This document shows, one piece after another, positions 4,933 to 52,928 of a DNA stretch of 64,000 nucleotides. The stretch is from an uncultured Candidatus Saccharibacteria bacterium. Lineage in GTDB: Bacteria; Patescibacteriota; UBA1384; DTJR01. The translations under genes were made by a program, and so were the position numbers. The DNA is taken from the NCBI GenBank assembly GCA_964487045.1, contig CAZAOT010000003.1:72983-136982 (forward strand). The letters run 5' to 3'. Position 1 is the stretch's first letter; each line of letters opens with the position of its first letter. The notes under the pieces were generated by a model that was not told the DNA's origin, did no database searches, and saw only the letters and a list, made by a program, of their open reading frames with translations.

Positions 4933-6298
4933 TGTTCTCCTTTGATTCGCCCGAAAATTCGATCGATTCAGAATTCTTGGGGATATCTATTTCAATATTC
5001 ATCGTTTCTTTAATTTTGGCCATTAAAGCCTCTTTAGCTTCAGGCTCGCCGTGAACTAGAACGATTTTCTTAACATTTTTAATCTGCGAGACCCACTCGA
5101 CAAGTTTTGGTTGGTCAGCATGCGCGGAGTATGATTGTATCGGGATGATTTTTGCTTTGGAGAAAATTTCACTGCCTCTTATTTTAACTTCCTTATCTCC
5201 GTCAAGCAATCTTCGCCCAAGAGTGCCTTTTACCTGATAACCGACGATCAAAAGCGTTGTATTTTCCTTTGGCAAAAATGCTTTTTCGTGCCATTGAATT
5301 CTACCGCCATTCGACATTCCTGAGCCAGCAATGATGATTTTGGTCGATTCGTCCTTATCTAACTTCATTGAATCTTCGCTTTCTTCAATCATCTTTAGAC
5401 CTTTAAACTCGAAGAAGTCGTCGCCTGATTTTAAAAGGGCCGTAGCTTCGGCATTATAATACTGAGGATATTTAGCGTAAACTTCAGTCGCCTTAATCGC
5501 CAGCGGACTATCAAGATAAACAGGTATAAATGGAATGCTTCCGCCTTCAACTAGGCCGTTTAGTTCATATAGGATCTCTTGAGTTCTTTCCATTGCAAAT
5601 GATGGCATTAGAATAGTTCCATTTTCGCTAATCGAGTCTTTGATAATCTTCGTGAGCTGCTCTTTACGTTTTTCCATCGGTTCATGTTCTCGATCGCCAT
5701 AGGTCGATTCCATAATTACTAAGTCTGCTGATTCAATAAATTCAGTTTTCTTAAGCAGGGGAACTGGAGGATTGCCGAGATCACCCGAAAAAATAATTGT
5801 TTTTCCTTCTGCCTGGATTTTGACAATTGCTGATCCAAGAATATGACCCGCATCATAAAATTCGACTTCCACGCCTTCAATAGGTGAGAATTTCTCGTGA
5901 TAATTTTTTTCTTCAATTAAGGCAACTGTTTTAGCGACATCATCTAGATCATATAATGGTTGTTTATTAACGTACTCGGCTTCATTTTCCATTAAGTGGC
6001 ATGAGTCTTCGAGGAAAATTTTGGCAAATTCTTGAGTTGGCCCAGTAGCATAAATTTTTCCGCCAAATCCCATTTTTACCAGGTGTGGTGTTCGACCAAT
6101 GTGGTCAATGTGAGAGTGGGTCATGATCATCGCACCGACGTCTGCTGGGTTATAGGGGAACTCCTGCCAGTTTAAGACTGTTTCATCGTCCCCACCTTGA
6201 AACAGACCGCAGTCGATAATCAGTTTGCCAGCGCTAGTTTCAAGTAGATAATTTGATCCTGTCACACCTTCGGTAGCTCCACAGAATGTAATTTTCAT
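4922..6298 (-). CDS. MBL-fold metallo-hydrolase with beta-CASP RNA-metabolising domain (RNase J / CPSF-like)
   Basis: HSHIDHIG metallo-beta-lactamase motif near the N-terminus; length and C-terminal region fit beta-CASP ribonucleases. Confidence 0.8.
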   Translation of the reverse strand: MKITFCGATEGVTGSNYLLETSAGKLIIDCGLFQGGDDETVLNWQEFPYNPADVGAMIMTHSHIDHIGRTPHLVKMGFGGKIYATGPTQEFAKIFLEDSCHLMENEAEYVNKQPLYDLDDVAKTVALIEEKNYHEKFSPIEGVEVEFYDAGHILGSAIVKIQAEGKTIIFSGDLGNPPVPLLKKTEFIESADLVIMESTYGDREHEPMEKRKEQLTKIIKDSISENGTILMPSFAMERTQEILYELNGLVEGGSIPFIPVYLDSPLAIKATEVYAKYPQYYNAEATALLKSGDDFFEFKGLKMIEESEDSMKLDKDESTKIIIAGSGMSNGGRIQWHEKAFLPKENTTLLIVGYQVKGTLGRRLLDGDKEVKIRGSEIFSKAKIIPIQSYSAHADQPKLVEWVSQIKNVKKIVLVHGEPEAKEALMAKIKETMNIEIDIPKNSESIEFSGESKENNEV

Positions 6299-6990
6299 TC
6301 GTTGCTCCCTGCTTTATCTTTTTCTTCTTCCGTCTCAATCCCTATGATCTTGAGCGCCGAGCTTGTTCCAATTCGAGTGGCGCCTGCTTCAATCATACCC
6401 TTAGCCTCTTCGAATGTATGGATTCCGCCCGATGCTTTGACCTTTACCTCGTCCCCCACAGAAGCACGCATCGTCTTAATATCATCGATGGTCGATGGTC
6501 TTGGGCCGTAGCCAGTCGATGATTTCACAAATGCTGCTCCTGCTTTCTCGGCTCTCTTGCATGCTTCGGTTAGCTCTTCTTCTGTTAGAAAGCCAACTTC
6601 CATAATAACTTTGAGGCCAATTGGCTGAATCGCTGTTGCGATTTCCCTGATTTCTTCTTCGATAAAATCAAATTTCTTCTCTTTAATTGCTCCAATGTTA
6701 ACAACCATATCAATCTCGGTTGCGCCATCTTCTACAGCGAGCTTGGCTTCGGCTACTTTAATTTCGGTTTTTGAAATACCAAATGGAAAGCCAATTACAC
6801 TAATTACTTCAATATCGGCTCCTTCGAGATATTCTTTTGCGGCTGCTACGCGGTAGGTAGTGACGCAAACACTATGAAAACCATATTCCTTAGCTTCAGA
6901 GCAAAGCTTTTTGATGTCTTCATTTGTAGCATCTGCTTTGACACAAGTGTGGTCAATATAAGAAACGATATTTTCTTTTGTAATATTCAT
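6295..6990 (-). CDS. deoC: deoxyribose-phosphate aldolase
   Basis: N-terminal SYIDHT signature of DeoC; Lys-containing active-site region VKxSTGY; ~230 aa. Confidence 0.9.
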   Translation of the reverse strand: MNITKENIVSYIDHTCVKADATNEDIKKLCSEAKEYGFHSVCVTTYRVAAAKEYLEGADIEVISVIGFPFGISKTEIKVAEAKLAVEDGATEIDMVVNIGAIKEKKFDFIEEEIREIATAIQPIGLKVIMEVGFLTEEELTEACKRAEKAGAAFVKSSTGYGPRPSTIDDIKTMRASVGDEVKVKASGGIHTFEEAKGMIEAGATRIGTSSALKIIGIETEEEKDKAGSNE

Positions 6991-7130
6991 TAAATCTCCT
7001 CAAGTTTAGGTCCTTCGATTCCTGCCCCTCTACCTGACGCACTGCAATAACAGGACGGAGTCAGTTTTGCAGTAAGGAATGGTGTGGGGTGGTCAATATA
7101 TTTTCTAATTGATTGTTGATCTAGTTCCAT
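6990..7130 (-). other. uORF (46 aa) made of a diverged duplicate of the deoC N-terminus plus a conserved ~67-nt element; its stop overlaps the deoC ATG (TAATG)
   Basis: MELDQQSIRKYIDH-PTPFLTAKLTPSCYCSASGRGAGIEGPKLEEI*. The element (about 7024..7089) is ~89% identical to the copy at 13989..14055. Preceded by AGGAGG and a -10 TATAAT. Confidence 0.6.
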
Positions 7131-7245
7131 TTTCCCTCCTTATAACGATACAAATGCATTATAACATAATAACTTAAGTGTAAATGAAAAGAGAAAGGGC
7201 CGCCGTGTCGAATGACATGGCGGCCCTGGTTGTGCAGTGAGAGCT

Positions 7246-7968
7246 CTAGCTTGGTAGCTGAAGCGGAGTTAGATACTCAGCAGCTCTGGGAGTCGCCTTG
7301 ATGTCAGCTTTGTATCCATAGGTTCTCGCTGTCTCCAGATCCCAAGCGTAACTACCAGCGGGCTGAGTGGGCCTTGCGATGATTCGCGGGTCAAACCCTA
7401 TCTCATTTCCGGTCGTTGCCCAGTCGATATATGGGTTGATGTCAACTTCATACCGGAAAGGATCGGTCCGATCGCCGGCAGCAAGTGTAGCCAGCTCATC
7501 TAGACGATCGTCTGGCCAGTAAACCTTGCTTGTTGTCTGGCGGTTTTCGATCTCGACCCATTCATCGCCAACTGAGATGACTTCCGCTTCGTCGAAATGG
7601 ACAAATGCCTCTTGCGGAATCTCAATCTCCGGAAACATCAACTCCTCGGGACAGAGCTGTTCGAAGAAGGTCGTGCCAAGTAGCGTTATGCTGTCATCCC
7701 CACGTGGGATGACAAAGTAGGGCTGGTTTTCGTATGCGCCCCACTTCTGGCCAGGCCAGAGATAGCCAAGCGCCCAATCACCGTCTTTTTGCTGATAGAC
7801 GAGCCATGCCGCGCCGCTTCGAACTTCCCACGCTACTGAGCAAAAGTTGTGAAAAGCTGGTTCGGCTGGCCGCTCCGGTGATATCCTTAGCAGGAAAGAG
7901 CAGCACATGTCGGCTTTGTACATGAACGAGTCGATGATCCTTGGCCTAAACTGAAGCCGGTTTGGCAT
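7246..7968 (-). CDS. hypothetical protein (G+C-rich gene)
   Basis: AGGAGG sits 6 nt before the ATG at 7968 (MPNRLQFRPR...). A hairpin terminator GGGCCGCC..GGCGGCCC plus T-run lies at ~7196-7240. Confidence 0.55.
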   Translation of the reverse strand: MPNRLQFRPRIIDSFMYKADMCCSFLLRISPERPAEPAFHNFCSVAWEVRSGAAWLVYQQKDGDWALGYLWPGQKWGAYENQPYFVIPRGDDSITLLGTTFFEQLCPEELMFPEIEIPQEAFVHFDEAEVISVGDEWVEIENRQTTSKVYWPDDRLDELATLAAGDRTDPFRYEVDINPYIDWATTGNEIGFDPRIIARPTQPAGSYAWDLETARTYGYKADIKATPRAAEYLTPLQLPS

Positions 7969-8059
7969 GTCTGCCTCCTTTTGTTCTTTCAAATGCTACA
8001 GGGTTGCATAAAGCTTGCCACTTTGCAGATAGTAAACGGGTCTTCTTATCTAGTCAAGA

Positions 8060-8581
8060 TTATTTATAAATATAGATCTTCGGAGAAGTATTCTTTTTTA
8101 ATGGTTTGCGCCCTGTGAAATTAAAGGTTAGGGACACAACGGAAGCATTTCGCTTTAAATTTTTAAAAATAATAGGTTCAATCTTAGCTAAGAGTTTTTC
8201 AAGTAGATAGACATAAATCAAATCAGCTTTGTTTATTAGGTTTTCGTATTTTAATATATTGCCGTAATAAATTTTAATATTTTTGGTTTGATGGTGAAGC
8301 GCAACATTTAATTTGGCGAGTATGAAATAGAAAGGGGAGATTTCGATGCCGATACCTTTTGCTCCAAACTCTTTGGCAGCAATAATCAAGCTTCGCGCAT
8401 TGCCACAGCCGAGATCGATGACCACTTGTCCAGATTTTAAGTAGGCCATCTCAAAAGCCTTTTTAATAATTTTTTCTTTAGCGTAAACCGTCGGTGCACC
8501 TGAAAAGGCGGAGATTAACAGAGAAATTTGCCAAATAAGTGCGATCAAAGCTAGAGTGATAAATAATATAGAAATAGTCAT
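8060..8581 (-). CDS. class I SAM-dependent methyltransferase with N-terminal membrane anchor
   Basis: VIDLGCGNA (motif I) and typical Rossmann MTase layout. Confidence 0.8.
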   Translation of the reverse strand: MTISILFITLALIALIWQISLLISAFSGAPTVYAKEKIIKKAFEMAYLKSGQVVIDLGCGNARSLIIAAKEFGAKGIGIEISPFYFILAKLNVALHHQTKNIKIYYGNILKYENLINKADLIYVYLLEKLLAKIEPIIFKNLKRNASVVSLTFNFTGRKPLKKNTSPKIYIYK

Positions 8582-8617
8582 ATTTATCTAAGATTAACAT
8601 TTTGTTTCATAAATAAA

Positions 8618-8660
8618 AAAGAAAGCCCGGGCGCTCCACTGGGGAGGGCTCGGGCTTGAT
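8618..8660 (-). terminator. Rho-independent terminator for the G+C-rich cassette
   Basis: Minus strand: AAGCCCGAGCCCTCCCCAGTGGAGCGCCCGGGCTT followed by TCTTTTTTATTT. Confidence 0.6.
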
Positions 8661-8678
8661 GAGGCGTGGTAGCGGGTG

Positions 8679-8939
8679 CTACCGGAGGTTTCGGCGCTGA
8701 TCCGCGGTGGGGTTCTTGCCCACGTTTGAGTTGCCGACCGTCCGCTTTCGCACGATCCAGTCGGCAAGGAGCACGAAGGCGCTGATCGTGGCAGTGATGG
8801 CAGTCATGTAGAGCGTCGGCTTGCTCTTAAACATGATGCCAAAAGCGATGAAAAGCGGGGTAGTGGGGAAGAGGAAGAATTTGAACAATCTCCTCTTTCC
8901 CTTGGTGAGAAAAGACTTCGGCTTGAGTGACTTCATCAT
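8679..8939 (-). CDS. small membrane protein (G+C-rich cassette gene 3)
   Basis: GGGAGG RBS; one or two TM helices; 15 nt downstream of the preceding gene. Confidence 0.45.
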   Translation of the reverse strand: MMKSLKPKSFLTKGKRRLFKFFLFPTTPLFIAFGIMFKSKPTLYMTAITATISAFVLLADWIVRKRTVGNSNVGKNPTADQRRNLR

Positions 8940-8953
8940 AGTCCTCCCTGTTT

Positions 8954-9523
8954 CTAGCCCTTGCAGTCAGGGCATACGATCGTGATTTGGTTTCCTACGC
9001 CGGACCCTGTGTCCGGAATGAAGGGATCTCCACAGCGGAAGCAGTATCTGGGTTCACCTGCAACCAGCTTCTTGTCTGCATCCGAGCAGACCTTGCACTT
9101 GCGGGGATTCCAGAGGTTGCGTCTGCTTGGGGTATAAGCACCGCAATGTGGGCAGTAGAAGTGTGTCATTAGGCGTTGCCCAGTGCTCTTGGCGACAGGC
9201 GGGATCCAGCGCTTGATCGTGAAGCGCTGCTCCAAACCAGGGTGCAACTCTACCGTAGCGCCGTGGCCGCTGGTAGCTCGGACAGCAAAGCCGTTTTCCA
9301 GAAAGAGGTTCGCTATCTGCGCGAGTTCGCCCAGAGGTTCCTGGTTGAGGGCAGTTGCCAACTCAACATAGCATAGTTCTTCTGGAATGCTAGCGGCAGG
9401 CTGGTTGATTTCGACAGCGATACGAGCTTGCTGCTCCTCGGGTAGATTTGCCAATAAGGCAGTAATCCGCCCCTTGAGCGCGTCTGCTTCTTGGCTTGTA
9501 CTGGTGACTCGGGCGCGGATCAT
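8954..9523 (-). CDS. hypothetical protein with C-terminal double CxxC zinc ribbon (G+C-rich cassette gene 2)
   Basis: AGGGAG RBS; C-terminus CPHCG...CKVCS...CFRCG...CPDCKG. Confidence 0.55.
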   Translation of the reverse strand: MIRARVTSTSQEADALKGRITALLANLPEEQQARIAVEINQPAASIPEELCYVELATALNQEPLGELAQIANLFLENGFAVRATSGHGATVELHPGLEQRFTIKRWIPPVAKSTGQRLMTHFYCPHCGAYTPSRRNLWNPRKCKVCSDADKKLVAGEPRYCFRCGDPFIPDTGSGVGNQITIVCPDCKG

Positions 9524-9637
9524 GGTTGCTCCCTATCCTTTTTGGTATGTAAAGGTTCGAACGAACGTTTGATTATATTTGAATTACGTCCGAATGTCAA
9601 TAATTAAGTACAAGGGACGCCGGAGGGGCGTCCCTGA

Positions 9638-9919
9638 TCAGAGCCAGCAGTCGTGGCGAGTGATGATATTTCCGTCATCGCCAATACTGCCAACTTTGCA
9701 TGTTCTTCCGAGACGGCGAAAGCCTCTCATTGCAGGAGCAAATGCGGCTGCACCTAACAATATATAGAAGCTGGTACCAGATATGCCCGAGATGGTAGCG
9801 AAAAGCCAGAACATCTTGGGGTAGCAGATCGCTACAGTCGTTGAAGTGTACGCAACCCCTTTGAGAAGGGGAGCGAGAACGATCGGTCGTGAAACTAATG
9901 ACAGAATTCGACTGATCAT
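9638..9919 (-). CDS. small hydrophobic protein (G+C-rich cassette gene 1)
   Basis: AAGGAG sits 7 nt upstream of the ATG at 9919; a promoter-like TTGAAA-17-TAATTT lies upstream. Confidence 0.45.
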   Translation of the reverse strand: MISRILSLVSRPIVLAPLLKGVAYTSTTVAICYPKMFWLFATISGISGTSFYILLGAAAFAPAMRGFRRLGRTCKVGSIGDDGNIITRHDCWL

Positions 9920-9984
9920 GCGCTTCTCCTTCCGAGGGATATGGTTAAATTATCCTAAAACAAGTTTGTTTTCAACCTGATAGA

Positions 9985-10013
9985 TTGATTTTTTGTCTCA
10001 TTTGGGCTATAAT
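9985..10013 (+). promoter_or_regulatory. sigma70-type promoter for tRNA-Lys
   Basis: TTGATT - 17 nt - TATAAT, ~60 nt upstream of the tRNA. Confidence 0.5.
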
Positions 10014-10074
10014 AATAAGTGCCTGCCTGCCGGTAGGCAGGGCTTTCCGCCTGTTCTTTTCTGTTATAAAGTTT

Positions 10075-10149
10075 GGGCCTGTAGCTCAGTGGTAGAGCAG
10101 TTGCCTTTTAAGCAACGTGTCGTGGGTTCGATACCCACCAGGCCCTCCA
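10075..10149 (+). tRNA. tRNA-Lys (anticodon UUU), CCA encoded
   Basis: Cloverleaf: acceptor GGGCCTG/CAGGCCC, D-arm AGCTCAGTGGTAGAGC, anticodon stem GTTGC/GCAAC with loop CTTTTAA, T-arm GTGGGTTCGATACCCAC. Confidence 0.9.
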
Positions 10150-10156
10150 ATGAAAA

Positions 10157-10190
10157 AAAATATCCACCCGTGCGGTGGATGTTTTTGTTA
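10157..10190 (+). terminator. Rho-independent terminator after tRNA-Lys
   Basis: ATCCACCCGTGCGGTGGAT followed by GTTTTTGTTATTT. Confidence 0.6.
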
Positions 10191-10341
10191 TTTGGAGTCA
10201 CTTAAGAGCGCGAAAGGCGTAGGCCGAGCTAAGGTCGAGAAAAAAAATCAGCAAAAATTGTCCAACATCTTGATTTTTTGAAAAATAAGTGAATAATGTA
10301 TTATTAATTTGGAATACGTACATTGAAAGAGGTAGGTAGCG

Positions 10342-10761
10342 ATGAGTAAGCGCATCCTGGTGGTTGATGATGAGCGCCACATCGTCCGTCTGGTTAAGCT
10401 CAACCTGGAACGCGCCGGCGGCTATGACGTCCTGACAGCGTACGACGGGATCGAGGCTCTGGGCAAAGTCAAGACCGAGAGCCCCGATATGGTGGTGCTC
10501 GACATCATGATGCCCCGGATGGACGGTTACGAAGTACTGCGTAACTTGCAAGCAGATCCCAGCTGCCAGAACATACCCGTGATCATGCTGACCGGCAAGG
10601 ACCAGGACGCCGACTTCTTCAAGGCCTGGGCCAGTGGGTTGAGGGCATATATGACAAAGCCCTTTGATCCCCAAGAATTGCTGACATTCATCCAACGGAT
10701 CTTCGAGGCCGATCAAATCGGGTATGGGGATGATACAGATGATTCGTGCTTTGAAGTGTAA
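10342..10761 (+). CDS. stand-alone response-regulator receiver (CheY-like) protein
   Basis: LVVDDE...DVLTAYDG...VVLDIMMPRMDG...MLTGK...KPF receiver signature. AAGAGG RBS. G+C-rich. The opposite-strand ORF 10198..10863 is a shadow. Confidence 0.85.
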   Translation: MSKRILVVDDERHIVRLVKLNLERAGGYDVLTAYDGIEALGKVKTESPDMVVLDIMMPRMDGYEVLRNLQADPSCQNIPVIMLTGKDQDADFFKAWASGLRAYMTKPFDPQELLTFIQRIFEADQIGYGDDTDDSCFEV

Positions 10762-10782
10762 TGTAGCTTGCCCCTCTCGATT

Positions 10783-10830
10783 CCCATGCCCGCATCTGCT
10801 CCGGAGGCTTTGCGGGCATTCTTTTTCTAA
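10783..10830 (+). terminator. Rho-independent terminator
   Basis: ATGCCCGCA-loop-TGCGGGCAT followed by TCTTTTTCT. Confidence 0.6.
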
Positions 10831-11003
10831 ATAGTTAACACCCATTTTATAAAGTCCAAACACAAATTTTTCAAAATTAGTTCAATCTGAGCCACAGGTG
10901 AAATTTCGCGTTCCACCCGCGAAATCCCCAGAAATAAAATTGCCCCGTTAGGGGCTATTTTAATTATTTAGAGATGTTTCCAGTCGTGTGATATATTAGT
11001 CCT

Positions 11004-13953: not shown

Positions 13954-14070
13954 ATGATTCGAAACGTTGCGATTATTGCTCATGTAGACCCCACACCGCT
14001 CCTTACTGCAAAACGGATTCCATCCTGTTATTGCAGTGCGTCAGGTCGAGGGGCGAGAGATGACAAATAA
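13954..14070 (+). other. uORF (38 aa) made of a synonymous-recoded duplicate of the typA N-terminus plus a conserved ~67-nt element (13989..14055)
   Basis: MIRNVAIIAHVD-PTPLLTAKRIPSCYCSASGRGARDDK*. The first 12 codons give the same amino acids as typA codons 6-16, with 6 synonymous nucleotide differences. The element is the reverse complement of 7024..7089. Confidence 0.6.
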
Positions 14071-14081
14071 AATTTTGCCAA

Positions 14082-15902
14082 ATGGATATGAATAAAATTA
14101 GAAATGTAGCTATCATAGCTCATGTAGACCACGGAAAGACCACGCTTGTCGATGGTCTATTAAAGCAGTCCCATACTTTTCGTGACAACCAAGCCGAGAT
14201 GAATCAGACGCTCATTATGGACTCAAACGATCAGGAGAGAGAGCGCGGAATTACAATTTTGGCTAAAAATACCGCAGTAAATTACAAAGATACTAAAATT
14301 AATATTATTGATACTCCTGGCCACGCCGATTTCGGTGGGGAGGTGGAGCGAACGCTCAATATGGCAGATGGCGCGATCCTTGTAGTTGATGCTCAAGAAG
14401 GACCAATGCCTCAAACAAAGTTTGTTTTGAAAAAAGCGCTTGATTTAGGGCTAAAGATTATTGTAGTAATAAACAAAATTGATAAGAAAAATGCGCAAGT
14501 TGAAAGTGTTATAGAAAGAACTTCAGATCTATTTCTTGATTTAGCTTCTGATGAGTCACAGCTCGAATTTCCAATTTTGTTTTCAATTGCCAAGCAAGGT
14601 AAGGCTTGGAGCGAAATGCCACAGAATTTTGAAGAAGACGGTGATCTTTCGAAAATTTTTGAAGCAATTTTGCAGTATATTCCTGCGCCAAAAGTCGAAG
14701 AGGGTCCATTTCAGATGCTTGTATCGGCCTTGGATTGGGATAGCTATCAGGGAAAATACGCAATCGGAAAAATTTCAAGAGGAAAAGCGATGGCTGGTCT
14801 TCAGGTGAGTTTGGTAAATGAAGATGGCGTAAAAGAAAATACTCGAATTGATAAGATTTTTGTTAGCAGCGGTTTGGTCAAACAAGAAGTTAAGGAAGCC
14901 GTGTGTGGCGACATTGTTTCAATTACCGGAATTAAGAACGCTGGAATTGGCGAAACAATCGCTGATCAGACGAGTCCCGAGGCTCTGCCGGGCATAAGTA
15001 TAGAAGAGCCGACCCTTTCGATGGCAATTTCAGCCAATACTTCGCCATTTGCTGGCAAGGAAGGTAAGTTTGTTACTGGCCGACAAATTTTAGACAGAAT
15101 TAAAAAAGAACTAGAGACAAACGTTTCGCTAAAATTTAAACAGGGCGAGGAAGGCGAATATATTCTCTCTGGCCGAGGCGAACTTCACTTGTCCGTCTTT
15201 ATTGAAACTCTTCGTAGAGAAGGTTTTGAGCTTCAAGTTGGTAAGCCACAGGTTATTATCAAAGAGATTGATGGCATTAAGAGCGAACCACTTGAAGAAT
15301 TAACGGTTGATGTCGAAGATCAGTATGTAAATAACGTGATCGCCGAGGTTATAAGACGAAAAGGTGTTTTGCATCATCAGAACCCACTTCTTGATGGCAC
15401 GACCAGGCTTATTTTTGAAATTACAACGCGTGGAATGCTCGGTCTTAGAAGCCAACTAATGACTCTTTCGCGCGGAACAGCTGTCGCTAACTCGATATTT
15501 TTAAGATTTGAAAAAGTTATGAGCGAAATTCCAAGACTTCGAAACGGAGTTTTGATCGCTTCTGAAGATGGCAAGGCTGTAACTTATGGGCTTGATATAG
15601 CTCAGGGCCGAGGAATCACATTTATCGAGCCACAACAGCAAGTCTATAAAGGTATGATTATCGGGCTTAATTCAAAAGAGTCTGATATCGAAATCAATGT
15701 AGCCAAAGAGAAGCATTTGACCAATATTCGAGCTGCTTCTTCTGATATGACCACGGTTTTGACCCCAGCAACAATTTTGTCACTTGAACAATGTATTGAC
15801 TTTTTGGAAGATGACGAGCTTCTTGAGGTTACTCCAACGTCACTTCGACTTCGAAAGAAGATACTCGATCCAACGCAGCGAAATAGAGCTAGAATTCGCT
15901 AA
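14082..15902 (+). CDS. typA: translational GTPase TypA/BipA
   Basis: AHVDHGKTT, DTPGHADF and NKID G-motifs; EF-G-like domain order; ~600 aa. Confidence 0.95.
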   Translation: MDMNKIRNVAIIAHVDHGKTTLVDGLLKQSHTFRDNQAEMNQTLIMDSNDQERERGITILAKNTAVNYKDTKINIIDTPGHADFGGEVERTLNMADGAILVVDAQEGPMPQTKFVLKKALDLGLKIIVVINKIDKKNAQVESVIERTSDLFLDLASDESQLEFPILFSIAKQGKAWSEMPQNFEEDGDLSKIFEAILQYIPAPKVEEGPFQMLVSALDWDSYQGKYAIGKISRGKAMAGLQVSLVNEDGVKENTRIDKIFVSSGLVKQEVKEAVCGDIVSITGIKNAGIGETIADQTSPEALPGISIEEPTLSMAISANTSPFAGKEGKFVTGRQILDRIKKELETNVSLKFKQGEEGEYILSGRGELHLSVFIETLRREGFELQVGKPQVIIKEIDGIKSEPLEELTVDVEDQYVNNVIAEVIRRKGVLHHQNPLLDGTTRLIFEITTRGMLGLRSQLMTLSRGTAVANSIFLRFEKVMSEIPRLRNGVLIASEDGKAVTYGLDIAQGRGITFIEPQQQVYKGMIIGLNSKESDIEINVAKEKHLTNIRAASSDMTTVLTPATILSLEQCIDFLEDDELLEVTPTSLRLRKKILDPTQRNRARIR

Positions 15903-16448: not shown

Positions 16449-16473
16449 GTTGGCCAAAATAGGGAGGCAGATT

Positions 16474-17739
16474 GTGGACAAAGAAGCGATCCAAGGCGCC
16501 CGCAGGGCGCTTCTGCTCAAGAAGCTTGAAGTAGCATCAACGACCAAGGAATGCACCCTTGCGTTCCAGGGTCTCAAGCTCTACAGAGATGACCTTTCGA
16601 TTGTCGCCACTCGTAAGAGAGCGATTGAGCTCGCAGCTTCGGCAGGCGACATGGATGAGGTTCGTCGCTTTCCGTATGATGTGGGTATCTTCTCTCTGGG
16701 AGATCAGGCTTCCGAGTTCTTTCGTAAGGCCATGCTGCTTTGCAGGCCTGAAGAAGTATACGACTTCACAGGCAACTTCGGCTATTACGCCGATGAAGTT
16801 GTTAGCTTCCTTGTCGAGGGGCTTACCGATCCGCTCAAGCTGACTCGACTAGCGATGCGACTCGGAGCGGAGGGTCTGCTTGAGCGCGGACAGGAAGTGA
16901 TCGCTCGGGCTGCTGAACTGGCTGCAAGCTGGGAAGTGTGCGGTTATGTCGGGACGATACACTATGCGCCGCTTCCGACAGGGTTTCTGACCATGGCCGT
17001 CCTTCTCGCTGAGGGGCAGAAGGGTTACGATGCTCCTCTCGAAGTTTGTGGGTGGATGAAGGCTTCGCTCAACGACCCGCTCGAATTCAGACAAGCAGCG
17101 GCTGTTGCCGAGCTGCTTGATGCGCCAAACAAGCGTATCAGGCGGGTAGCCGGAGAGCGGATCAGGCAGGCTTACCAGGAGAAACTGAGCGGCCAAGATG
17201 GCGACTTCTATATCCAAAGCGCCTGGAACGTCGTTTGCGATGCCCGCGATGCGCTTCCGGAACTGGCTGCAGAGCTGACCGCTGATCTCGTGGTGCGTCT
17301 GACAGATGCGGTACCAGCCTGTCAGGACTTTTCGGAGGCAAAGTCGCATCTTGAAGTCGCTTCCGCAATGGAGGACTTCGGGATCGATGGAGTCTACTGG
17401 CCGGCAGCCATGCGTGCGATGGAGCTGGCAGAGGGCTGTGATGATATCCTGGCGTTGGTGCGCCTTGGCATTCATGTCCAGGAGCTCACCGAGGCTGTCC
17501 TGGTAATGGCTGCAACCGAAGATGATATCATTGCAGTCATACAGCGCAACCCGAACTTCTCTGGTGAGTGGACGTTGCCTCTTTGCGAGCGGATCTTCGA
17601 CTATCGGCGCCAGAGGGCGCAGACGATCGAGGACTTCATGATTCTGCATCACCTGACCAAGGACCCGGTCAAACTGGCCGAGGTCGAGGATCGCATCCAG
17701 GAGCTCATCGCTCCATACCATACCGAGCCTGAGGAGTAA
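16474..17739 (+). CDS. hypothetical all-alpha protein (G+C-rich)
   Basis: GTG start at 16474, 6 nt after AGGGAGG (the track used TTG at 16450). Terminator follows. The opposite-strand ORF 16849..17754 is a shadow. Confidence 0.55.
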   Translation: MDKEAIQGARRALLLKKLEVASTTKECTLAFQGLKLYRDDLSIVATRKRAIELAASAGDMDEVRRFPYDVGIFSLGDQASEFFRKAMLLCRPEEVYDFTGNFGYYADEVVSFLVEGLTDPLKLTRLAMRLGAEGLLERGQEVIARAAELAASWEVCGYVGTIHYAPLPTGFLTMAVLLAEGQKGYDAPLEVCGWMKASLNDPLEFRQAAAVAELLDAPNKRIRRVAGERIRQAYQEKLSGQDGDFYIQSAWNVVCDARDALPELAAELTADLVVRLTDAVPACQDFSEAKSHLEVASAMEDFGIDGVYWPAAMRAMELAEGCDDILALVRLGIHVQELTEAVLVMAATEDDIIAVIQRNPNFSGEWTLPLCERIFDYRRQRAQTIEDFMILHHLTKDPVKLAEVEDRIQELIAPYHTEPEE

Positions 17740-32404: not shown

Positions 32405-32440
32405 AGAGGAAAGCCCCCCGCCATGCGGCAGGGGGCCTTG
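32405..32440 (-). terminator. Rho-independent terminator
   Basis: Minus strand: GGCCCCCTGCCGC-ATG-GCGGGGGGC followed by TTTCCTCTTTTTT. Confidence 0.6.
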
Positions 32441-32461
32441 TTTCCCGGTGCGATGAAAGTC

Positions 32462-32911
32462 TCACCAGCGTCCCCCCGGGTAGGGGTTGTTGGCGCGCTC
32501 GAAGTTCCGCTGAGCGCGCTCCAGGTCTCGGTAGCCGCTCGACAGGTAGCCGAGCCGCCGCCGCTCCGCTTCGATGGCGGAGATTTGGTTGTTGTACCCA
32601 CCCTGAGGCAGGTACCCGCCTTGGTAGCTGTAGCCACCCTGGGCGACGTAGCCGTTGCCGCAGCCATAGTTGCGCTGCTGGCAACCGCAGATAGTGCCGA
32701 TCGGCCTGATTTGGAAGCAGGCCGAACAGCGGACGAGCTGCGCCTGCGGGGCGAAGTAACCGCCACCGCAGGTGGGCATCGGCATCGGGCGATAGCCCGG
32801 GCCGCACCCACCACCGCTGCCACCGACCGAGAGGATCACGGTGATCCTGGGGCCGGCGCTCGCCGTCGAAACGGCGGCGATTACGACGAGAACGATTGGC
32901 ATCGTCCTCAT
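32462..32911 (-). CDS. small secreted Gly/Cys/Tyr-rich protein (G+C-rich)
   Basis: GAAAGAGGTG RBS; signal peptide MRTMPIVLVVIAAVSTASA; GGY/GGC repeats with about 12 Cys; promoter TTGACT-17-TATAGT. Three other overlapping ORFs here are shadows. Confidence 0.5.
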   Translation of the reverse strand: MRTMPIVLVVIAAVSTASAGPRITVILSVGGSGGGCGPGYRPMPMPTCGGGYFAPQAQLVRCSACFQIRPIGTICGCQQRNYGCGNGYVAQGGYSYQGGYLPQGGYNNQISAIEAERRRLGYLSSGYRDLERAQRNFERANNPYPGGRW

Positions 32912-32988
32912 TTTGGACACCTCTTTCAAAGGTGCTGGAATTGACTGATTCGGGTAACTATACCACAATTACCCGAGAAAGTCAAGGT

Positions 32989-52064: not shown

Positions 52065-52928
52065 ATGAGCCATAAGTATTTGATTGGAGCTAGTTTAGGA
52101 TACTCTGGAATTGAAGCGATCACTTCCGATCAAAATTTTAATATACTGGAAAAGAAGTCCAATCCTTTCCCGGGCAAGTTAGGCAAGGATACAATAGTCG
52201 CAAAATTATCTAAAACCATTACTTCGCTTGCTGAATATCACAACTCTTTTGCGGTAGGGATAAGTTTGCCTGCGGTTTTCGATCAAAGTAATAAAAAAAT
52301 CATTTCTTCTCAAATCGAAGGACTTGAAGGTGTGGATATTTATAGTCTGCTCTCGCGAAAAATTGATAAGCCAATTTTTTTCTTCCGAAGAAACTTCTCG
52401 ATTATGCTTTCTGAGCAAGCTTTTGGCGCGGCTAAAGATCTTAAAAACGCAGTATTGGTTGAAATTGGTAGAGATATCTCATGCGCGCTTCTCATCGGCG
52501 GGAAGATCTACAAAGGATCAAATAACGCCGCTGGACTAATTGACGAAACAATAGTCGATATTACTAGGGAAAAGAGGAATGAAGGAGGGACATTCTCAAG
52601 TTTAATTTCCGGTGAGGGTATTGAATCATTAACCGGAAAATCTGTGTATGAAATTCTAAAAGATTCCAAGGACTCAAACTTAGTTAGCAAACAGATAATC
52701 AGAGACCTCAAAGAAACATTACTTACTGGTTTTATTAATGCTAAGCTTTTGCTGGACCCCGAAGCTTTTATAGTAAGTGGGGAAATATTACAAAATTACG
52801 CTTTATTTGAAGCCGCTTTTAAAGACCTTGGAGTAGAGGTAAAAAAAGGAGAAATTGGCTCATCGGCCCCGGCACTTGGTGGGGCAATTGCCCTGTATAA
52901 TAAAGTAAATAAGAAGGACGTTAAATGA
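52065..52928 (+). CDS. ROK/BadF-type (ASKHA-fold) sugar-kinase-like protein
   Basis: N-terminal IGASLGYSGIEAI phosphate-1-like loop; weak similarity only. Confidence 0.45.
   Translation: MSHKYLIGASLGYSGIEAITSDQNFNILEKKSNPFPGKLGKDTIVAKLSKTITSLAEYHNSFAVGISLPAVFDQSNKKIISSQIEGLEGVDIYSLLSRKIDKPIFFFRRNFSIMLSEQAFGAAKDLKNAVLVEIGRDISCALLIGGKIYKGSNNAAGLIDETIVDITREKRNEGGTFSSLISGEGIESLTGKSVYEILKDSKDSNLVSKQIIRDLKETLLTGFINAKLLLDPEAFIVSGEILQNYALFEAAFKDLGVEVKKGEIGSSAPALGGAIALYNKVNKKDVK

Follow-up and report, generated by a model that had tools for sequence, protein, structure and literature searches.

A hairpin element of Berkelbacteria-like genomes that appears to carry a replacement for the sequence it interrupts

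Two gene starts interrupted by the same hairpin

In the 64-kb window analyzed here (the whole stretch of DNA considered, from contig CAZAOT010000003.1 of an uncultured Candidatus Saccharibacteria bacterium), the genes deoC, on the minus strand, and typA, on the plus strand, are each preceded by a conserved hairpin of about 69 nucleotides (nt) that lies between two versions of the start of the gene. The upstream version, copy A, is severed from the gene and opens a short upstream open reading frame (uORF), while the downstream version, copy B, begins the expressed gene. A preliminary description of this DNA had taken the two loci, in unrelated genes, for one architecture produced by a targeted and recurrent process, and this view is borne out by at least eight further kinds of target with the same architecture in other genomes of the candidate phyla radiation (CPR). 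We consider it probable that the hairpin belongs to a non-autonomous element of Berkelbacteria-like CPR genomes that brings with it a replacement for the sequence it displaces, the interrupted gene then being expressed by translational coupling.

At deoC, the -10 box, the AGGAGG and the ATG with 14 DeoC-like codons that had been described were all located, between 7166 and 7089 of the minus strand (Table 1). The codons of copy A are ATG GAA CTA GAT CAA CAA TCA ATT AGA AAA TAT ATT GAC CAC (7130-7089), and their DeoC-like character is upheld by similar N-termini in the homologues P0004, P0006, P0009 and P0016, e.g. MELDKQSIRKYIDH and MDIDQSSIRKFIDH. Copies A and B each measure 42 nt from ATG to GACCAC and end in an identical 12-mer, TATATTGACCAC, found as expected at 7100-7089 and 6960-6949. 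Starting in copy A, the uORF runs through the hairpin and the linker that follows it, and its TAA (6992-6990) overlaps the deoC ATG (6990-6988) by base 6990, which gives the TAATG junction already noted in the preliminary description. The -10 box was not called by a consensus promoter scanner, having no -35 match; a TG(Y)TATAAT motif likewise stands upstream of deoC in four element-free relatives. The predicted fold of the deoC hairpin has an energy of -22.9 kcal/mol. In other assemblies the 46-codon uORF is annotated as a gene, and P0122-P0124 are homologous uORFs. The same arrangement was also found in a 232,796-bp NCBI contig and in Logan contigs of three sequencing runs; being present in four independent assemblies, it is therefore no assembly artefact.

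At typA, the uORF has 38 codons and its stop lies 11 nt upstream of the typA ATG, and the insertion is bordered by an identical 13-mer, GCTCATGTAGACC (13978-13990 and 14118-14130). Copies A and B differ at 6 of the 11 codons they share, by the nucleotide changes A>C, T>C, A>T, T>G, C>T and A>T, and copy B has an additional MDMNK, the expressed N-terminus reading MDMNKIRNVAIIAHVDH... Ahead of the coding part there is no similarity between the two leaders, and no recognizable Shine-Dalgarno sequence precedes the new start.

Element-free relatives identify the upstream start as native

Loci without the element were taken from the closest DeoC homologues (L053-L056), in none of which the covariance model of the hairpin gave a match, and for typA from L062 and L063. 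In L055 and L056 deoC is intact: promoter, ribosome-binding site and N-terminus align with copy A of the window, an AAGGAGG homologous to AAGGAGGG precedes the gene, and the gene body aligns with the window from TATATTGACCAC on. By blastn, the window has about 131 additional bases relative to these two loci plus a 9-15-nt overlap, and the edges of the insertion may slide by up to 12 nt owing to the repeat (7089-7100 and 6949-6960). Element-free typA, in L063 and in L062 (the same assembly as L055), begins MIRNVAIIAHVDH, of which 34 of 37 nt equal window copy A, and the head of copy A is far closer to these relatives than that of copy B. Nearly all of the 50 closest TypA homologues with N-termini listed begin with MIRNV, the MDMNK... 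form being atypical.

N-termini resembling copy B of deoC occur in other lineages (P0002, P0003, P0005 and P0007). L053 and L054 also have them, and their alignment to the window begins 21 nt (L053) and 8 nt (L054) upstream of the downstream ATG. Over the deoC gene body all four relatives are about equally distant from the window, with neither the copy-A nor the copy-B lineage favored. Since the empty deoC and typA loci match copy A behind the same promoter, the alignments show that the upstream relic is native at both genes and that the working start downstream was probably imported with the hairpin. Uninterrupted orthologues, which had been named as a check on the proposed architecture, thus exist for both genes (deoC in L055 and L056, typA in L062 and L063), and they support the proposal that the original promoter and ribosome-binding site drive the uORF. 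The functional start does lie downstream with its GAGGAG (7001-6996), as had been stated, but this start, there called the true one, appears to be imported, not ancestral.

Three further observations concern the surroundings of deoC. The gene upstream of it, ORF 7246-7992, is kept in L055 (54% amino acid identity) and absent from L054 and L056. Between the 3' end of this ORF and the deoC promoter lies a probable terminator (7195-7228, minus strand), a GC-rich stem GGGCCGCC...GGCGGCCC with a run rich in T after it, which a consensus terminator scan did not call; a comparable stem stands at the equivalent position in L055. In L054 alone among the relatives, a PF05635 gene (23S rRNA intervening-sequence protein; 2223-2591) is placed between deoC and a beta-CASP RNase gene.

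Table 1. Positions of the features at the two loci of the window, with further targets in other CPR contigs (a slash marks the insertion point)
Feature	Position or locus	Strand	Basis
Extended -10 promoter TGTTATAAT, native deoC unit	7158-7166	-	read from sequence
Native Shine-Dalgarno AAGGAGGG, now that of the uORF	7134-7141	-	sequence
Copy A: native deoC start, 14 codons, MELDQQSIRKYIDH, severed from the gene	7089-7130	-	aligns to L055/L056
46-codon uORF: copy A, hairpin and linker read-through, TAA	6990-7130	-	ORF list
Conserved 69-nt hairpin, stems P1-P2-P3, 3' end GGGGCAGG	7021-7089	-	covariance model, 81.9 bits
Linker and putatively imported 5' untranslated region, including Shine-Dalgarno GAGGAG (6996-7001)	6991-7020	-	alignments of relatives
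Copy B: putatively imported start and first 14 codons, MNITKENIVSYIDH, of expressed deoC	6949-6990	-	ORF list
140-nt insertion relative to element-free deoC loci	6949-7088	-	blastn breakpoints against L055/L056, measured length
deoC coding sequence, 231 amino acids, Pfam DeoC	6295-6990	-	ORF list, Pfam
typA uORF, 38 codons: native start MIRNVAIIAHVD (13954-13990), then hairpin read-through	13954-14070	+	sequence
Second hairpin copy	13989-14057	+	covariance model, 84.3 bits; fold
140-nt typA insertion relative to empty sites	13991-14130	+	alignment, measured length
typA coding sequence, atypical, putatively imported N-terminus MDMNKIRNV...	14082-15902	+	N-termini of homologues
lepA, after ...HID of the P-loop	L010, L060
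tsaD, after ETSCD	L044, L048, L052
NAD-dependent epimerase, within VTGGxGF	L015, L019, L038
tRNA gene 3' half, hairpin antisense to the tRNA	L009/L034 (tRNA-Thr), L028, L033, L039
-35 box, CTTGA/CA	about 10 loci
Ribosome-binding sites	L006, L007, L014, L016, L017, L032
DnaA box upstream of dnaA	L008

A conserved hairpin family in CPR bacteria

Pairwise alignment of the deoC and typA hairpins, which the preliminary description had named as the comparison on which the likeness of the two elements would stand or fall, gave 91% identity over 67 nt (7024-7090 against 13988-14054). Scanning the 64 kb with the covariance model returned exactly these two hairpins, and neither the rest of the window nor 100 shuffles gave another near match to a 38-mer of the element. 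The constant part of about 69 nt consists of three stems with conserved internal loops, beginning with CCCC at its 5' end and closing with GGGGCRRG at its 3' end.

The family was surveyed by one exact-pattern scan of species-representative genomes and one scan of metagenome contigs. The former gave four matches, namely one chance match, two loci in one bin and one in a Candidatus Berkelbacteria bin; the latter gave 44 hairpin loci. With duplicates removed, about 40 distinct copies remained, in CPR bacteria, and the covariance model added more divergent hairpins within loci already retrieved. Those DeoC and TypA homologues that have source names belong to Candidatus Berkelbacteria or Patescibacteria, and they put the organism of the window in the same group. 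Viral contigs and the records of phages and plasmids yielded no hairpin copy. Rfam 15 has no family for the element: across the window and 22 loci only tRNA and rRNA passed the gathering score, and near the element there were only chance-level matches (E up to 10). The literature searched on repeats and insertions in Patescibacteria and Berkelbacteria gave no such element, the papers retrieved being on group I introns in Patescibacteria tRNA genes.

All copies fold as one long hairpin, with energies from -19 to -32 kcal/mol. In the P2 and P3 stems of 46 copies, 98.8% of cells are paired and nine pairs show compensatory changes, a level reached by none of 500 column shuffles. The outer stem P1 is variable in register and its co-variation was judged by eye (CCCCGCA/TGCGGGG, CCCTGTA/TACAGGG, CCACGA/TCGTGG). 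Single-sequence folding z-scores are unexceptional (-0.1 and -1.1), so that the support for the structure comes from covariation and not from folding energy. The hairpin is a selected structure. Between loci it is 88-94% identical, against 59-74% for the linkers and genes there. An integron attC site was considered and rejected, the boundaries being CCCCAC... and ...GGGGCRRG without RYYYAAC ... GTTRRRY core sites.

Some copies depart from the single compact form. Paired hairpins occur in L039 (1-151; two in tandem with only a tRNA-stem fragment ending in TGA between them), L048 (383-578; two inverted around a 44-nt tsaD relic start) and L037 (580-753; two adjoining the 3' end of a tRNA-Glu), which suggests repeated insertion at or near existing copies. 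Long forms (L006 2470-2640, L007 6655-6800, and L045) have an additional internal stem-loop, TTTGGCGG TTCCATC CCGCCAAA against TTTAGCGG TTCCACC CCGCTAAA, a compensatory change, and their 3' stem takes in the new ribosome-binding site (CTTCCTGA...TCAGGAGCGGAGG); they may be a structured variant that masks the Shine-Dalgarno sequence. In L013/L049, L043 and L047 the hairpin is followed by another 100-150 nt that are conserved and strongly paired (GGGGTTAATCTCT...AGATTAAAAAAATCGCCAG...CTGGCGAT). This stretch has no match in Rfam, and together with the hairpin it may form a larger composite RNA or element.

Diverse conserved targets share the architecture

In other CPR contigs the hairpin is likewise followed by a replacement of whichever sequence was interrupted, from P-loop codons to tRNA genes and promoter boxes (Table 1). 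The insertion points rank among the most conserved short sequences of bacterial genomes. In most copies an A, often that of a TGA, closes the left flank, and the target continues with C; L012, L014 and L050 are exceptions. In L008 (Candidatus Berkelbacteria PEZV01000007.1, 2212-2350) the hairpin lies amid DnaA boxes between rnpA and dnaA, following a truncated box (GTTATCCA/C), and complete boxes (GTTATCCACA) appear again 136 nt on. The element thus seems able to occupy a replication origin.

In all 11 coding cases the frame that opens at the relic start stays open through the hairpin, and the end of the uORF falls anywhere from 8 nt inside the new start to 11 nt ahead of it, the junctions being of the types TAATG, TAA/ATG, TGATG and ATGA. 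Searching 5.8 billion proteins with a profile of the whole uORF peptide recovered only four clusters, of 45-49 amino acids, which are uORFs of deoC, lepA and the epimerase, and the hairpin peptide was found in no long protein.

Divergence between the copies and length of the insert

In seven coding loci, by our own count, copies A and B have 40 differing codons that are synonymous and 5 that are non-synonymous, the synonymous changes including switches between the serine codons TCG and AGT and between the arginine codons CGC and AGG. In the displaced tRNA-Thr fragment of L009 the T-stem is preserved by a compensatory G-C/C-G swap. Taken together with the unrelated typA leaders, these synonymous and compensatory differences exclude a recent local duplication followed by decay. 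Judged from the sequences, the cargo is best described as a diverged, ortholog-like replacement and not as a copy of the local sequence, and the preliminary account of duplicated segments is refined in this respect.

Immediately beside the hairpin the two copies become identical, in blocks of 12, 12, 13 and 16 nt (12 at deoC, 13 at typA, 16 at lepA in L060). Divergence falls from saturated synonymous to zero at the identity block, the adjoining upstream codons differing at 6 of 7 positions. L057, which belongs to a more distant lineage, is another filled deoC locus, with the layout of the window and a homologous linker. There both tails read TATATCGATCAC, and in the window both read TATATTGACCAC, so that among the four deoC copies the heads cluster by copy and the tails by genome. 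This pattern fits either integration via short shared identity or a later homogenization of the tails.

The linker of the window (6991-7020) also resembles a segment inside an ROK-family gene (52313-52342) at 24 of 30 nt (80%), and the likeness extends to the reading frame (IEGPKLEEI against IEGLEGVDI). We dropped a link between the two as probably due to chance; the homologous linker of L057 has no such similarity.

Measured from the first C of the hairpin to the end of the replaced segment, the insert is 140 nt long at deoC and at typA of the window, 141 nt at deoC of L057, 140 nt at both lepA loci, 140, 140 and 143 nt at the tsaD loci, 142 nt at the epimerase of L015, 138 nt at the tRNA locus L033 and 136 nt at the DnaA box of L008. 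Among the coding loci (those of the window, L010, L015, L044, L048, L052, L057 and L060), head lengths range from 37 to 50 nt and linker lengths offset them. The length of the flanking identity varies between loci (about 1 to 16 nt). Integration of a fixed-size unit would be expected to leave an insert of constant length beside an identity block of variable length; a staggered cut would not.

A proposed mechanism

On our preferred reading, the cargo downstream of the hairpin would duplicate the displaced sequence; at deoC it would comprise the linker, ribosome-binding site, start codon and 14 codons. What remains upstream is the native promoter, ribosome-binding site and 14 codons, as a relic that opens the 46-codon uORF. 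Transcription of deoC would still start from the native promoter, and ribosomes from the relic start would melt the hairpin, stop at TAATG and restart on deoC. As for its movement, excision would release a unit of constant size, about 140 nt in the case of coding targets, measured from the 5' end of the hairpin; the unit would integrate beside a short identity at motifs that are highly conserved, in most cases with NGA before it and C after it. Excision and integration are the weakest steps of the scheme. The mobilizing enzyme would be encoded elsewhere, and copies that fail to restore their target would be lost. The predicted empty deoC allele has ...TATATTGACCA joined to ACTTGTGTC directly behind copy A, and the predicted circle junction has the tail of copy B joined to CCCCACACC.

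Several points weigh against this proposal. Termination-reinitiation coupling, with the ribosome also opening the hairpin, is deduced from the geometry of the junctions. In L048, 11 nt of the old tsaD persist downstream of the hairpin and a second, inverted hairpin lies just upstream, which fits poorly with a simple unit that has its hairpin at the junction. The length of 140 nt does not hold for other target classes, which measure 104-116 nt, 83-108 nt (-35 boxes) and 94-163 nt (ribosome-binding sites). Among the 25 most frequent of the 142 Pfam families detected around the hairpins (69 neighboring ORFs), we found no transposase or integrase and no family that recurs beside hairpins, and five GC-rich ORFs of the window (see below) had no Pfam match. 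The DeoC and TypA proteins predicted for excised alleles were absent from 15 billion proteins in an exact look-up, and there is therefore no evidence of presence/absence polymorphism within the species. Furthermore, the deoC units of the window and L057 have diverged like the host gene (66-74%). The insertions may accordingly be old and vertically inherited, in which case the identical tails would need gene conversion and the hairpin may have been kept by selection, for mobility or for a host function.

A diversity-generating retroelement was rejected: the differences between the typA copies are not confined to adenines, and no reverse-transcriptase family was seen among the same 25 families or in the GC-rich ORFs of the window.

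Alternative explanations

The alternative that we rank highest, although we regard it as unlikely, is an ancient insertion or duplication that was co-opted as a regulatory 5' leader of housekeeping genes, consisting of a leader peptide and a protein- or ligand-binding hairpin, and is no longer mobile. Such a leader would explain why the hairpin (88-94%) is much more conserved than the surrounding linkers and synonymous sites, why its internal loops are conserved and why the uORF geometry is kept in 11 of 11 coding cases, and it agrees with the host-like divergence of the window and L057 units. However, the hairpin is also found antisense to and downstream of tRNA genes, in -35 boxes and in an origin DnaA box, where an mRNA leader has no role; closer relatives have no hairpin at deoC and typA, and Rfam holds no such family.

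We give a low probability to the view that the loci are scars of large prophages or integrative elements which entered at tRNA genes and at the 5' ends of genes, and of which later deletions left no more than the two attachment-site ends. The anatomy is that of an attL-attR pair, with an identity core at both ends, a displaced native end and a replacement end, as at icd and at tRNA genes. Yet all of the roughly 40 copies have an interval of only 83-163 nt, repeatedly of exactly 140, whereas independent deletions would scatter; moreover, a single hairpin family sits at unrelated targets that share no attachment sequence, no integrase remnants were seen nearby among the 25 most frequent families, and the phage and plasmid collections gave no match.

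A local tandem duplication, whether the hairpin was inserted with a target-site duplication of about 70 nt or a later duplication rescued the gene, with the copies then diverging in place, has little left to recommend it and is already largely refuted. It would account for the collinear deoC copies, whose start codon and ribosome-binding site lie at equal offsets, and for an insert of about twice the hairpin length. A decaying duplicate would not be expected to show 40 synonymous against 5 non-synonymous differences or a compensatory change in a tRNA; nor does this explanation suit the unrelated typA leaders, the jump from saturated to zero divergence within 12-16 nt of the junction, or a copy A head that is nearer to element-free relatives than the head of copy B.

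Finally, recoding, in which the ribosome hops from the upstream to the downstream GAC CAC or the RNA is spliced and the protein begins with copy A, so that DeoC would start with MELDQQSIRKYIDHTCVK... instead of MNITKENIV..., draws on the matched codons and 12-nt identity at take-off and landing and on the hairpin directly 3' of the take-off site, but we give it almost no credence, given that no stop follows the take-off codon, the uORF runs on for 32 more codons to end on a full start equipped with a Shine-Dalgarno sequence, the gap amounts to 140 nt, the matched codons are missing in some loci, e.g. L038, and translation is irrelevant where the element duplicates tRNA ends, promoters or a DnaA box.

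Comparison with known systems

The icd gene and tRNA-gene islands already provide examples of inserted DNA that substitutes a diverged version for the displaced gene end; a phage at icd brings a replacement 3' end of that gene. Phage 21, e14 and NC-SV integrate within icd of E. coli (PMC12803456). Like the element, icd phages and tRNA islands carry a diverged copy of the displaced gene end so that the gene stays intact, leave the displaced native end as a fragment, and have a short identity core at both junctions. The same features recur here, with an identical core at both junctions (12-16 nt at deoC, typA and lepA) and a replacement gene end in all target classes. The icd phages and islands, however, run to kilobases, have an integrase gene of their own and a single fixed attachment site, and replace 3' ends, whereas the element is a unit of about 140 nt (83-163 nt over all classes) with neither an ORF of its own nor an integrase, is found at many unrelated targets (5' ends, promoters and a DnaA box among them), and bears a conserved hairpin at one end.

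Rickettsia palindromic elements (RPEs) and other hairpin repeats such as REP/REPIN, Correia and ERIC resemble the element as short, dispersed, non-autonomous palindromic repeats, and RPEs also lie inside protein-coding genes and are translated. RPEs, though, are in frame, stay in the mature protein and replace no target, while here the frame is ended and restarted. As in miniature inverted-repeat transposable elements, there is a short multi-copy core (about 69 nt, with two copies in the window and about 40 elsewhere) whose two ends are paired, by P1; there is no fixed-length target-site duplication, and the longer 'duplicate' is ortholog-like.

IS200/IS605 types with their miniature derivatives, IS91/ISCR and Helitrons share with the element a hairpin-defined end and the lack of a fixed target duplication; they insert at a short motif, for which NGA/C, with the exceptions named above, may be the counterpart here, and IS91/ISCR and Helitrons also co-mobilize adjacent host sequence from one end only. 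The element differs from all three in having one hairpin end placed directly at the junction, captured sequence that systematically repairs the target, and an apparent ruler of about 140 nt. Miniature elements derived from IS200/IS605 have a subterminal hairpin at either end, set back from the cleavage site, and insert 3' of a specific target of 4-5 nt. The single hairpin of the present element has its foot at the left junction, the right end of coding-type units having none, and no HUH transposase was seen near the hairpins among the 25 most frequent Pfam families.

Translationally coupled upstream ORFs with TAATG or ATGA overlaps are similar in that the stop overlaps or abuts the downstream start, as it does in the 11 of 11 coding cases; the usual coupled uORF is a separate gene or a dedicated leader, whereas here it consists of a relic of the gene's own start and a mobile hairpin. 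Programmed bypass of the T4 gene 60 type uses matched take-off and landing codons with a stop right after take-off. At the element no stop is adjacent, and a separate Shine-Dalgarno sequence and ATG stand at the head of the downstream part. The element is a unit of about 140 nt that contains no gene, has a single conserved hairpin end, occurs at many unrelated conserved targets and leaves a relic uORF that is coupled, on our reading, to the gene; none of the systems considered has all of these traits.

Other features of the window

Five ORFs, 7246-7992 (-), 8954-9523 (-), 10198-10863 (-), 16450-17739 (+) and 32423-32944 (+), have 50-55% G+C, against about 38-40% for the genome, and may be islands of foreign or fast-evolving genes. 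The cumulative GC skew reaches its minimum near 6-8 kb (window about 6000-10500), and the genes switch from the minus to the plus strand between 9523 and 10342, on either side of a tRNA (10075-10146). This region, which has no dnaA gene, looks like a replication origin or another skew switch; if it is an origin, the sense strand of both hairpin copies would lie on the lagging-strand template.

Implications

CPR genomes are tiny and tightly packed, with almost no safe sites for selfish DNA. An element able to live in translational-GTPase P-loops, tsaD, tRNAs, promoters and a DnaA box because it brings a repair patch along would represent a new strategy of persistence. Some of the upstream mini-ORFs and seemingly 'wrong' gene starts in CPR bins may stem from it, and it would offer a route for the horizontal replacement of gene starts and promoters. 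We also put forward, tentatively and as a possibility that may well fail, that mobile DNA of a novel type is at work here: hairpin cassettes with a fixed length near 140 nt, excised by a ruler measured from the hairpin and integrated by short identity, without a protein-recognized site. Between CPR lineages they would exchange the starts of essential genes, the 3' ends of tRNAs, promoters and the DnaA boxes of origins. If so, the cassettes would act as a scarless knock-in system found in nature and would drive the turnover of N-termini and promoters in minimal genomes. The recurrent 140 nt and the short identity blocks point to an uncharacterized recombination activity, and there is a substantial chance that the underlying mechanism is new. 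Such an activity, if identified, could serve for small targeted insertions.

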